From: Candidatus Yanofskybacteria bacterium
Lineage (GTDB): Bacteria; Patescibacteriota; Minisyncoccia; 2-02-FULL-40-12; IGHO2-01-FULL-4-A
NCBI GenBank assembly: GCA_903897805.1
Contig: CAIUCV010000017.1
Span: 5,725 to 69,724, forward strand
Direction: 5' to 3'
DNA: 64,000 bases
The translations under genes were made by a program, and so were the position numbers. How positions within the stretch are numbered: position 1 is the first letter of the stretch; every line of letters starts with the position of its first letter. Below are positions 20,393 to 22,413 of this stretch, in pieces. The notes under the pieces are model-generated. The model searched no databases. It saw nothing but the letters and a program-made list of their open reading frames with translations, and was not told the DNA's origin.

Positions 20393-20420
20393 TTGACTTC
20401 CCCATTTGGAGGAATATAAT
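20393..20420 (+). promoter_or_regulatory. Candidate 16S rRNA promoter (TTGACT, 16-nt spacer, TATAAT)
   Basis: Hexamers read directly, ~260 nt upstream of the 16S 5' end. Confidence 0.5.
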
Positions 20421-20469
20421 CAAGGATATTAAAATGAAGTAAAAACCTTACAACTTTCTGTGTTTTTAC

Positions 20470-20516
20470 ACACTCGGGATTGTCCTTTGACCATAATTCA
20501 GGACAATCCCGAGTGT
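20470..20516 (+). repeat. Perfect 17-bp hairpin in the 16S leader (acactcgggattgtcct / aggacaatcccgagtgt); its loop side carries a boxA-like tgtcctttgacca
   Basis: Read directly; 13-nt loop. Confidence 0.7.
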
Positions 20517-20565
20517 TATTGTCAGGACATTAAAAATTAAATACGAACGATAAGAATACGTGATT

Positions 20566-20583
20566 TCTTATCGTTAACCAGAT
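20566..20583 (+). promoter_or_regulatory. 16S leader half of the rRNA processing stem
   Basis: tcttatcgttaaccagat is the perfect reverse complement of 22358-22375 in the trailer. Confidence 0.7.
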
Positions 20584-20679
20584 CTAAATAGCTTGTGATT
20601 TTTTCACAATCTATTCCTAAGAGAAAATTTTTACCCTTGCCATTTACGGCAAGGAGAGCAAGATTAACTCTTTTTTATG

Positions 20680-22154
20680 AGAGTTTGATCCTGGCTCAGG
20701 ATGAACGCTGGCGGCGTGGATAAGGCATGCAAGTCGAACGATACGATTTCCGCAAGGAAATCATATAGTGGCGAACGAGTTAGTAACACCTTGGTACGTA
20801 ACCTAAAGTCGGGCACAACCCCGCGAAAGCGGAGCTAATTCCCGATAGTATGGCAACATTAAAGTCGCAAGACGCTTTAGGAGCGGCCTAGGTCCTATCA
20901 GCTTGTTGGTGAGGTAATGGCTCACCAAGGCTACGACGGGTAGGGGGCGTGAGAGCGTGTTCCCCAACGACGAGACTGAGACACGGCTCGTACACCTACG
21001 GGTGGCAGCAGTCGAGAATATTCGACAATGGGCGAAAGCCTGATCGAGCGACGCCGCGTGCAGGAAGAAGGCCCTCGGGTTGTAAACTGCTTTTGCGTGG
21101 GAAGAATTTTGACGGTACCACGAGAATAAGGGGTTGCAAACTCTGTGCCAGCAGCAGCGGTAATACAGAGACCCCAAGCGTTATCCGGAATTACTGGGCG
21201 TAAAGCGCAAGTAGTCGGTTTTTGTAGTCCAACGTTAAATCTCACGGCTTAACTGTGAGACCGCGCTGGAAACGCAAGAACTAGAGCATGTCAGAGGTAA
21301 GCGGAACGTGCGGTGTAGCGGTGAAATGCATTGATATCGCACGGAACACCAAAAGCGAAGGCAGCTTGCTGGGGCTTTGCTGACGATCAGTTGCGAAAGC
21401 GTGGGCAGAAAAAAGGATTAGATACCCTTGTATTCCACGCCCTAAACGATGCAGACTAGCTATCGGGAGCATCGACCCTCTCGGTGGCGCAGCTAACGCA
21501 TTAAGTCTGCCGCCTGGGAAGTACGGCCGCAAGGCTAAAACTCAAAGGAATAGGCGGGAGCTCGCACAAGCGGTGGATCATGTGGTTCAATTCGACACAG
21601 AGCGAAAAACCTCACCAAGGCTTGAAATGCTAGTGAAAACTCCGGGAAACCGGAGCCCCCGCAAGGCACTAGCACAGGTGCTGCACGGCTGTCGTCAGCT
21701 CGTCAGGTGACTGGTTCCCTTCAGTGGGGAAACGAGCGCAACCCCTGTTGCCTGTTACAAGTGTCAGGCGAGACTGCCAGGGTTGACCTGGAGGAAGGCG
21801 GGGACGACGTCAAGTCAGCGTGGCCCTCTGATGCCTTGGGCTACACACATGATACAATGGGGAGTAACAATGGGTTGCCAAGCCGCGAGGCGGAGCTAAT
21901 CCCATCAAACCTCCCCTCAATTCGGATTGGAGGCTGAAACTTGCCTCCATGAAGCCGGAATCGCTAGTAATCGCAGATCAGCACGCTGCGGTGAATACGT
22001 TCTCGAGCTTTGCACTCACCGCCCGTCAAGTCAGGGGAGCCGGGAATACCCGAAGGTCCATTTTTATTAGTGGAACCACGGTAGGCTCGGTAACAAGGAC
22101 TAAGTCGTAACAAGGCACGGGTAGCGGAAGCTGCTCGTGGATCACCTCCTTTCT
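20680..22154 (+). rRNA. rrs: 16S ribosomal RNA (~1475 nt, no intron evident)
   Basis: Begins agagtttgatcctggctcag and ends ggatcacctcctttct; gtgccagcagcagcggtaa, ggattagataccc and caccgcccgtca present, with lineage-specific deviations. Confidence 0.95.
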
Positions 22155-22357
22155 AAATTCAATTCCGCCAACCGGTGGATGAATTTAGAAATAAGTGTCG
22201 TTATAAATTATCAGTTGTTTGCCGGCAGATTGTTGGTAGACGCGCGGTATTAGAGGCCGGTTAATGTGCCTTTGATACTGCGTAAAACTTTTTAATTTAT
22301 GGTCATCCGTTTTGACCGATTCAAACGGCGTTTAAGGCAAGGAGTCGAAAACCTTCC

Positions 22358-22375
22358 ATCTGGTTAACGATAAGA
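22358..22375 (+). promoter_or_regulatory. 16S trailer half of the rRNA processing stem
   Basis: atctggttaacgataaga complements 20566-20583. Confidence 0.7.
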
Positions 22376-22388
22376 GATCATACAATCT

Positions 22389-22413
22389 AAAACCCGCCTC
22401 TCGGCGGGTTTTA
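22389..22413 (+). terminator. Rho-independent terminator ending the 16S transcription unit
   Basis: aaaacccgcc-tctc-ggcgggtttta. Confidence 0.65.

Follow-up and report, generated by a model that had tools for sequence, protein, structure and literature searches.

How is a 16S rRNA gene expressed and matured when no 23S or 5S rRNA gene accompanies it? This question is raised by a locus in the analyzed window, by which we mean the whole 64-kb stretch of DNA under study. The preliminary description had read it as a unit with its own promoter, processing stem and terminator and without a linked 23S rRNA gene. Our analysis supports this reading, and each of these elements is kept in relatives. Overall, we consider it highly probable that the locus of this Patescibacteria (Paceibacterota-like) bacterium represents a monocistronic 16S transcription unit, including the whole sequence of events proposed below. 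The 5′ and 3′ ends of the transcript and its cleavage are predictions from sequence.

A 16S rRNA gene apart from 23S and 5S

The Rfam model RF00177 matched positions 20673–22152 of the plus strand over its full length (model positions 1–1533) with 1416 bits, compared to a gathering score of 50, which places the gene among the bacterial SSU rRNAs. A pseudogene reading was rejected based on this full-length match and on independent contigs. The 515F primer site is mismatched in this gene, which is preceded by a leader of ~246 nt and followed by a structured trailer of 205 nt (Table 1).

Table 1. Features of the 16S locus and associated genes in the window
Feature	Position	Strand	Evidence and remarks
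NusB gene	14676–15170		Pfam NusB 3.2e-36
RNase III gene rnc	15272–15958	+	Pfam Ribonucleas_3_3 2.4e-41, plus dsrm
Sigma-70-type promoter	20393–20420	+	TTGACT 20393–20398, 16-nt spacer, TATAAT 20415–20420
Leader hairpin h0, GUAAAAAC...GUUUUUAC	20439–20469	+	minimum-free-energy fold prediction
Leader hairpin h1, perfect 17-bp stem	20470–20516	+	inverted repeat I2; −29.9 kcal/mol
Conserved single-stranded block, GTTATTGTCA + GGACATTAAAAAT	20515–20537	+	family leaders; consensus GRACnTTGAAAA
Local hairpin, X = AACGATAAGAA (20546–20556) with TTCTTATCGTT (20565–20575)	20546–20575	+	inverted repeat I7; −12.9 kcal/mol
Leader (5′) arm	20561–20583	+	inverted repeat I1; duplex −36.3 kcal/mol
Leader hairpin h3, UUGUGA...UCACAA	20588–20614	+	minimum-free-energy fold; between leader arm and 16S
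16S rRNA gene	20673–22152	+	RF00177; full length, without insertions
Helix of 16S 3′ end (UUUCUAAAUUCA) with trailer (UGAAUUUAGAAA)	22150–22191	+	inverted repeat I5, perfect 12 bp
H-type pseudoknot, S1 22301–22305/22313–22317, S2 22307–22312/22323–22328	22301–22328	+	covariation
Trailer (3′) arm	22358–22380	+	inverted repeat, cofold, family comparison
Bidirectional intrinsic terminator, palindromic 16-bp stem	22383–22418	.	inverted repeat I3; −27.4 kcal/mol
Next gene, convergent ORF sharing the terminator	22431–22697	−	
tRNA-Ile(GAT)	31564–31638	+	ARAGORN, Rfam; 9.4 kb downstream of 16S
LOG-family gene between the two tRNAs	31687–32421		Pfam Lysine_decarbox/SLOG
tRNA-Ala(UGC)	32482–32554	+	ARAGORN, Rfam; 10.3 kb downstream of 16S

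As previously claimed, no 23S or 5S rRNA gene follows: none was found at the Rfam gathering score within the 64 kb, including 41.8 kb downstream of the 16S gene, and two patescibacterial 23S 5′ domains had no BLASTN match in the window. The preliminary description had itself raised the concern of a misassembly, i.e. a contig that is chimeric at ~22.2–22.4 kb, with a 23S gene really adjoining the 16S gene. rRNA genes are classic break and join points, and two contigs (L001, L002) from the same organism stop at the 16S start, ~335 nt past the ORF at 19793–20383. However, in an independent ENA contig of 61.8 kb the flanking genes are likewise 2047 nt apart and are followed by the same genes downstream, and in at least six metagenome contigs from relatives the 16S gene is followed by the trailer and then by a convergent SIMPL gene (seven relatives carry the 16S 3′ end, trailer and SIMPL gene: L124, L125, L127, L130, L134, L135, L138). 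Furthermore, the trailer arm past the supposed junction complements the leader, and an adjacent 23S gene was seen in none of 30 phylum members. With the independent contig and the relatives in agreement, the probability of an artefact is negligible and we regard it as excluded.

The statement that no spacer tRNAs follow needs correction, as the classic spacer tRNAs, tRNA-Ile(GAT) and tRNA-Ala(UGC), are found further downstream on the same strand, each cut off by protein genes. In distant relatives the first tRNA after the 16S gene is tRNA-Ile(GAT). An ancestral 16S-tRNAIle-tRNAAla-23S order has probably been broken up by protein genes, with 23S and 5S now presumably residing elsewhere in the genome.

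Signals for transcription start and stop

Transcription would begin at the sigma-70-type promoter, starting at ~20427. The hexamer pair lies exactly where it had been described, matches the consensus in 11 of 12 positions and tops all promoter-like sites across 18–34 kb. At the identical aligned position, eight distinct family leaders contain TTGACn-16/17-TAnAAT, while the flanks diverge; both hexamers are kept in L024/L137, L123, L124/L134, L136, L139, L140 and L141, where the spacer diverges too. Hexamers, a spacer within 16–18 nt and a maintained position thus agree with a sigma-70 promoter. Across the phylum, promoters with at least 11/12 matches were found upstream of the leader arm in 25 of 46 Patescibacteria loci (54%) compared to 18 of 1044 control windows (1.7%).

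The upstream genes are co-oriented with the 16S gene (rpsP-khpA-(radical SAM)-trmD-ORF-ORF, the nearest ORF being 19793–20383). In 37 of 88 Patescibacteria loci trmD is located upstream of the 16S gene on the same strand, directly adjacent in 13 of them; this synteny suggests a long-standing functional neighborhood. On the plus strand, the region between trmD/ORF 19793–20383 and the promoter yielded no terminator-like site, so that read-through may add to 16S transcription. It is even conceivable, if rather unlikely, that the 16S gene is largely co-transcribed with the upstream trmD genes and that the promoter only boosts transcription internally or matches the consensus by chance, to which both the missing terminator-like site and the recurrent upstream trmD would lend themselves. 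However, the 11/12 promoter holds its position across relatives with differing flanks, it directly follows trmD in L024, and phylum-wide such promoters are ~30 times as frequent upstream of leader arms as in control windows. In addition, the conserved leader structure starts immediately 3′ of the −10 element in the family alignment. These observations argue for the 16S gene's own promoter.

At the other end, transcription would stop at the bidirectional terminator. A strong terminator had been placed at 22389–22413, and it indeed lies there as part of a longer palindrome whose position is conserved in relatives. Its arms (22383–22398/22403–22418) are perfectly palindromic with a GC core of CCCGCC/GGCGGG, and the T-run at 22409–22412 is mirrored by an A-run at the opposite end; the U-run comprises only 4 nt and is followed by AGAUUG. 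A simple terminator scan missed the element, its T-run being taken up in the stem. Since the palindrome is symmetric, opening with an A-run and closing with a T-run, it has the form of a terminator in either direction. In nine of ten family trailers, a hairpin and T-run come after the trailer arm, with differing stem sequences (equivalent hairpins with different stems in L124, L125, L129, L130, L131, L134, L135 and L138), and a terminator-like hairpin was found after the trailer arm in 20 of 46 distant loci. The element thus combines a GC-rich hairpin with a U-run at the unit end, as expected of an intrinsic terminator.

The opposite-strand gene reported after the terminator is present (ORF 22431–22697) and forms, together with 22787–23539 and 23582–24145, the minus-strand ORFs directly downstream. 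With the hairpin only 13 nt from the stop codon of this first ORF, it could serve the convergent gene alone, the 16S transcript ending elsewhere or by Rho. We consider this very improbable, as the symmetric palindrome with A-run and T-run can be read on both strands and as L135 and L130 have a terminator at a similar distance despite a different downstream context.

Structures of the leader and trailer

Between promoter and terminator, a long-range helix joins leader and trailer; its arms are separated from the 16S gene by 89 nt on the 5′ side and by 205 nt on the 3′ side. The preliminary description had given an 18-bp stem (20566–20583/22358–22375). Complementarity over these 18 nt is indeed perfect, but the true length is 23 bp (20561–20583/22358–22380), comprising 22 Watson-Crick pairs and one G·U wobble, which the repeat finder counted as one mismatch. 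The helix also appears in the cofold prediction of leader and trailer. RNAduplex on the whole 300 × 400-nt flanks returned only full-length pseudo-duplexes and was uninformative; instead, we scored the best ungapped helix with cross-locus controls. Across 46 Patescibacteria loci, a leader and its own trailer showed on average 17.2 paired bases, compared to 10.5 ± 1.6 in the cross-locus controls, which puts the 22 paired bases in the window far beyond chance. Flanking helices of at least 15 paired bases occur in 39 of these 46 loci with arm sequences unrelated between lineages. Hence, long complementarity flanks the gene, and across the phylum it is kept up despite sequence change. Within the family, 94% of helix cells are paired in six members, and no covariation was found since the arms are nearly invariant; this comparison is uninformative, all the more as the relatives had been retrieved by the arm sequence itself.

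The helices in relatives support the earlier reading as an RNase III-type processing stem, with cleavage itself as the predicted outcome. The window encodes RNase III, and the rnc product is presumed to be the enzyme acting on the helix. We infer that, once the 16S and trailer have been made, a 23–24-bp helix would bracket the pre-16S, serving as RNase III substrate and, by analogy to E. coli, as scaffold for 30S assembly. A different weighting, which we judge a serious possibility though somewhat short of even, is that the main role of the helix is to join the pre-16S ends, as a scaffold for assembly or folding, and that the RNase III cut is secondary or dispensable. Relatives contain up to four insertions in the 16S gene, and those with a 16S enlarged by insertions, up to 5.2 kb, keep the same helix, which fits such a role. 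The scaffold role is compatible with cleavage, however; the genome retains a complete RNase III with dsRNA-binding domain, and a near-perfect 23-bp duplex is a textbook RNase III substrate.

Before the trailer exists, the future 5′ arm would be held in an 11-bp local hairpin. As the 3′ arm of this hairpin is part of the long-range leader arm, the local hairpin and the leader-trailer helix are alternatives: the hairpin is present when the leader is folded by itself, and it gives way to the long helix when leader and trailer are cofolded. During transcription, the trailer arm would displace the local partner. The partner segment X is retained in 14 of 16 family leaders, despite loop insertions of 60–75 nt. 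As a general feature, such a placeholder hairpin was rejected, at least 8 bp being found in 4 of 36 distant loci versus 3.1% of controls and at least 10 bp, among the 36 loci, only in the window. Based on these sequence comparisons, the placeholder hairpin is family-specific.

Upstream of the arm, the leader is predicted to fold into h0 and h1, followed by a conserved single-stranded block at the position of the E. coli boxA. Compensatory variants in relatives were read by eye for h0 (UUAAAACC/GGUUUUAA, ACAUAAC/GUUAUGU), and relatives also have compensatory variants of h3, located downstream of the arm (GAGA/UCUC, GAGC/GCUC). Hairpin h1, which occupies the E. coli boxB position, is kept in the family with compensatory changes; in L124, L134 and L136 an unrelated stem sequence is found at the same place. 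By its position, the block is a boxA candidate. Its likeness to known boxA sequences is loose to modest, several alternative alignments being about equally weak. TTTGACAAC and GTGACAAA are overrepresented in the leaders of distant loci, and the window lacks both. In the rrn-leader literature consulted, including PMC10250234, no boxA consensus for Patescibacteria was found. NusB is encoded in the window; any antitermination would be conjectural.

In the trailer, the 3′ end of the 16S pairs with the adjacent sequence, and the distal AUUUAGAA of this helix is kept in family trailers. Further downstream, the H-type pseudoknot has 95% of its cells paired in ten family sequences, compared to at most 42.5% in slid controls, with both-side changes at 9 of 12 pairs. 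It has no match in Rfam, and a search of leader and trailer with permissive E-values gave only sub-threshold, chance-level matches. As a general feature, the pseudoknot was rejected, since a covariance model matched only the window among 100 sources; a pattern scan gave 13 matches in 45 compared to 4.6 expected. We treat it as family-specific on these sequence grounds. To our knowledge, neither the pseudoknot nor the arm-pre-pairing leader hairpin has been described so far. A tentative idea, possible but doubtful, is that both are dedicated cis-acting elements for folding or processing of the monocistronic pre-16S. If true, they would keep distant arms competent to meet across a transcript of 1.5–5 kb, and the pseudoknot would represent a novel structured RNA motif that Rfam does not contain.

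Unlinked rRNA genes and comparison with known systems

The preliminary description had called an unlinked rRNA gene uncommon in bacteria generally, which does not apply to Patescibacteria: in none of the 30 loci with enough downstream sequence was a 23S gene found within 1500 nt of the 16S gene, and only L037 and L059 have a 23S, at 2.0–2.5 kb. The order 23S-5S-16S was observed in two genomes. The stand-alone 16S arrangement is the rule in this phylum, not an oddity. We know of no experimental data on unlinked rRNA genes in Patescibacteria. Unlinked rRNA genes have been published for Patescibacteria/CPR (Brewer et al., bioRxiv 10.1101/705046; ISME J 2020) and were found in 27 of 34 closed CPR genomes (Lui et al. 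2021, PMC8172020). The locus counts as unlinked by the definition of Brewer et al. (>1500 bp to the 23S, or no 23S within 1500 bp) and by the stricter one of Lui et al., with minus-strand ORFs directly after the 16S gene. As in these studies, the 16S gene lacks a nearby 23S; whereas they scored distances only, promoter, helix, terminator and internal structures are resolved here for one lineage.

Since the arrangement is already published for the phylum and an analogue has been characterized in H. pylori, the finding is correct but ordinary, and the side observations leave the 16S feature ordinary for its lineage. It provides a clean, resolved example of a broken-up rRNA operon retaining the complete signal set for one rRNA. 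Approaches based on 16S-ITS-23S amplicons will miss these organisms. The covarying pseudoknot, alternative leader hairpin, phylum-wide trmD-16S synteny and 23S-5S-16S order could be starting points for studies of ribosome biogenesis in ultra-small bacteria.

The canonical rrn operon has the order 16S-tRNAIle-tRNAAla-23S-5S. The 16S, tRNA-Ile(GAT) and tRNA-Ala(UGC) genes of the window share this relative order and strand, but protein genes, partly encoded on the opposite strand, keep them 9.4 kb and 0.85 kb apart, and the 64 kb contain neither 23S nor 5S.

In E. coli, 30S formation requires the leader-trailer helix (Warner et al. 2023, PMC10250234). The E. coli rrn leader likewise runs from promoter through hairpin, single-stranded block, helix 5′ strand and small hairpins to the 16S. 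In both systems the leader strand is near-invariant, and the changes seen in the trailer strand are wobble-compatible. In contrast, the E. coli helix has 25–40 bp and the 16S-23S spacer of a polycistronic transcript serves as its trailer, whereas here the trailer ends in a terminator. E. coli has boxB-boxA-boxC; in the window, neither boxA nor boxC could be matched with confidence. No E. coli counterpart has been described for the alternative local hairpin or the trailer pseudoknot.

An experimentally characterized analogue is H. pylori, where RNase III cuts the stem flanking a monocistronic precursor transcribed as a separate 16S unit from its own promoter (Iost et al. 2019, PMC6582327). Its leader comprises 454 nt, cleavage leaves 374 and ~80 extra nucleotides, and the processing stalks were inferred to have been retained after operon break-up (PMC6582327). 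The evidence is experimental there and sequence-based here, the phylum is another one, and the arms lie 89 and 205 nt from the 16S in our case. Both systems share a separate 16S unit, its own promoter and a long-range stem around the mature 16S.

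Genomic arrangement of the 16S rRNA gene

Besides a complete bacterial 16S rRNA gene, only two RNA genes, tRNA-Ile(GAT) and tRNA-Ala(UGC), were found in the window. Rfam detected no 23S or 5S rRNA gene in the whole 64 kb, and the window gave no BLASTN match to the 23S 5' domains of L037 and L059, two compared loci with the order 16S-tRNAIle-tRNAAla, gap, 23S at 2.0-2.5 kb. The preliminary description of a unit lacking 23S and 5S is thus confirmed, but its statement on spacer tRNAs has to be amended: the two tRNAs, which are the usual 16S-23S spacer tRNAs, are located 9.4-10.3 kb further downstream. 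They enclose a LOG/SLOG-family gene and are followed by DUF763-like, UvrD-like and KsgA-like ORFs in place of 23S. In nearly all distant loci examined, the first tRNA past 16S is tRNA-Ile(GAT), and the window copy has drifted 9.4 kb from the 16S gene.

A misassembly at ~22.2-22.4 kb concealing an adjacent 23S is contradicted by an ENA contig assembled independently from the same organism, in which the 2047-nt gap between the genes flanking 16S is identical and the downstream genes also match. In metagenome contigs of family-level relatives, the 16S 3' end is likewise followed by the trailer and a convergent SIMPL gene. Rfam scans of 33 Patescibacteria loci, 30 of them with at least 1500 nt past 16S, revealed no 23S within 1500 nt (0/30). 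Previous studies list Patescibacteria among the clades with exclusively unlinked rRNA genes (Brewer et al., 10.1101/705046) and report unlinked 16S and 23S in 27/34 closed CPR genomes (Lui et al., PMC8172020). The unlinked 16S, initially regarded as uncommon in bacteria generally, is real, but in this phylum such an arrangement is normal and has been published before.

The genes 5' of the 16S encode NusB, RNase III (with a dsRNA-binding domain), S16, a KhpA-like KH protein, a radical SAM protein, TrmD and two unknown ORFs; on the opposite strand 3' of it lie a small ORF and a SIMPL protein gene. The order NusB-RNase III-S16-KH-TrmD-16S also occurs in L024, a Paceibacterota MAG, and in L066. 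Across Patescibacteria loci, trmD was found just 5' of 16S on the same strand in 37/88, often accompanied by rpsP and a KhpA-like KH gene (window 16413-20383; loci L003-L122). L026 carries NusB-RNase III 5' of its rRNA genes, but no trmD, rpsP or KH match. In two Patescibacteria MAGs, L026 (3071-7944, +; 5S-16S gap 148 nt) and L093 (1-4660, -), the rRNA genes are tightly packed on one strand as 23S-5S-16S, which is permuted relative to the canonical operon order. At the left edge of the window lies a 766-aa ORF (1-2321) within which, or at whose start, several independent assemblies of this organism end; a repeat or some other obstacle to assembly may lie just 5' of this edge.

The 515 site of the 16S reads GTGCCAGCAGCAGCGG, which, compared by eye with the E. 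coli sequence, we take to be a compensated U505-A526 pair. At the 515F primer site (21145-21166, GTGCCAGCAGCAGCGGTAATAC), C526 is changed to A (E. coli numbering, by eye), matched by G505 to U at about 21130, and the 505-507/524-526 pseudoknot pair is kept. When GTDB species representatives were scanned for the 515-site variant, most of the hits were Patescibacteria MAGs (Paceibacterota, Magasanikbacteria, Uhrbacteria, others). Nearest in 16S identity was L024, with 89% over its first 840 nt, the rest showing 78% or less. In the close relatives L138, L129, L124/L134, L128 and L131, the 16S is split by 1-4 insertions (at sites corresponding to ~21147, 21420, 21691 and 22018; gene spans 2.6-5.2 kb), none of which is present in the window.

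Features of the 16S transcription unit and its surroundings (window coordinates)
Feature	Position	Strand	Remarks
Promoter	-35 TTGACT 20393-20398, 16 nt, -10 TATAAT 20415-20420	+	sequence reading
Hairpin h0	20439-20469	+	compensatory variants in family
Hairpin h1, 17-bp	20470-20516	+	-29.9 kcal/mol; compensatory variants in family
Conserved single-stranded block	20515-20537	+	family alignments
Local hairpin, 11-bp	20546-20575	+	leader folded alone
Hairpin h3	about 20588-20614	+	covaries in family
16S rRNA gene, complete, bacterial	20673-22152	+	Rfam, 1416 bits, model 1-1533
H-type pseudoknot, compact	22301-22328		S1 GGUCA/UGACC, S2 CCGUUU/AAACGG
Palindromic hairpin, perfect, 16-bp	22383-22398 / 22403-22418		GC core; A-run 5', T-run 3'; -27.4 kcal/mol
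Convergent ORF	22431-22697	opposite 16S	first gene past terminator
tRNA-Ile(GAT)	31564-31638	same as 16S
tRNA-Ala(UGC)	32482-32554	same as 16S

Promoter and terminator

The proposed promoter scores 11/12 and ranks first among the promoter-like sites in 18-34 kb. Family alignments, based on 19 contigs of relatives (16S identity roughly 84-99%) retrieved by an arm-sequence scan of metagenomes, show both hexamers fixed in position amid a diverging spacer and diverging upstream flanks. The L024 promoter lies directly 3' of trmD. Matches of at least 11/12 within 250 nt 5' of the leader arm occur in 54% of 46 phylum-level loci vs 1.7% of control windows. No terminator-like site was found between the co-oriented upstream genes and the promoter; some read-through into the 16S unit is therefore possible.

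The terminator was also corroborated: a hairpin with T-run follows the trailer arm in 9/10 family trailers with differing stem sequences. A terminator-like hairpin lies within 90 nt past this arm in 20/46 phylum-level loci, and some of the others run on into tRNA genes.

Structures of the leader and trailer

The described 18-nt perfect complement (20566-20583 / 22358-22375) was recovered, but the helix is longer, with 23 nt (20561-20583 / 22358-22380) and a U.G wobble as single mismatch. It reaches -36.3 kcal/mol and forms in a leader and trailer cofold. Over the 46 phylum-level loci, the best helix between own leader and trailer averages 17.2 paired bases vs 10.5 +/- 1.6 for cross-locus combinations. 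Arm sequences are unrelated between lineages, a pattern equivalent to covariation of the helix as a whole. Among family members, 94% of it is paired, yet it is invariant; this is expected because relatives were retrieved with the arm sequence, and adds no covariation evidence.

Conserved leader structure starts just past the -10. When the leader is folded alone, AACGATAAGAA (20546-20556) pairs with 20565-20575 (-12.9 kcal/mol), part of the leader arm, giving an alternative to the long helix; in the cofold, the longer trailer arm replaces it as partner. Of 16 family leaders, 14 retain the 5' partner, even with 60-75 nt loop insertions, although this local pre-pairing hairpin is not a general feature of Patescibacteria. 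As a separate observation, AACGATAAGA, the 5' partner, duplicates the core of the trailer arm, and L129 and L138 carry additional copies of this motif before their terminators. Immediately preceding the mature 5' end of the 16S is a lineage-specific insertion of ~58 nt (20625-20682) that includes a hairpin of its own. An imperfect direct repeat (TAAGAGA / TATGAGA) borders the insertion, which is shared by the window, L123, L135 and L138; the other family members lack it. Distant Patescibacteria leader arms (L009, L121, L111, L006, others) are enriched in TTTGACAAC (or TCTTTAACAAC) followed by RTGTGAYAAA, a pattern with some likeness to boxA and boxC of E. coli. Only the GTGAT part occurs in the window leader.

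The 205-nt trailer is highly structured and contains a pseudoknot. Across 10 family sequences, 95% of its cells are paired (slid controls, at most 42.5%), both sides are changed in 9/12 pairs, and compensatory changes occur in S1 and S2. It had no Rfam match, and searches of distant Patescibacteria loci did not recover it.

Proposed maturation and known systems

The interpretation as a stand-alone 16S unit is supported, and the best-supported product is a monocistronic pre-16S transcript roughly 2 kb long, with ends predicted from sequence at ~20427 and ~22415. Its ends would pair into a 23-24-bp helix, the leader arm being first sequestered by the local hairpin and then taken over by the longer trailer arm. 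The genome's RNase III would presumably cut this helix, and NusB/boxA antitermination, if any, may act on the transcript. Only two elements are possibly new, namely the pseudoknot in the trailer, which is specific to the family, and the alternative hairpin in the leader; overall, the unit is a well-resolved example of a known arrangement. Helicobacter pylori resembles the window in having a separate 16S unit with a stem flanking 16S, which is cut by RNase III (PMC6582327). Production of active 30S subunits in E. coli requires the leader-trailer helix, also when RNase III is absent (PMC10250234); by analogy, the helix of the window probably has a role in assembly as well as in cleavage.
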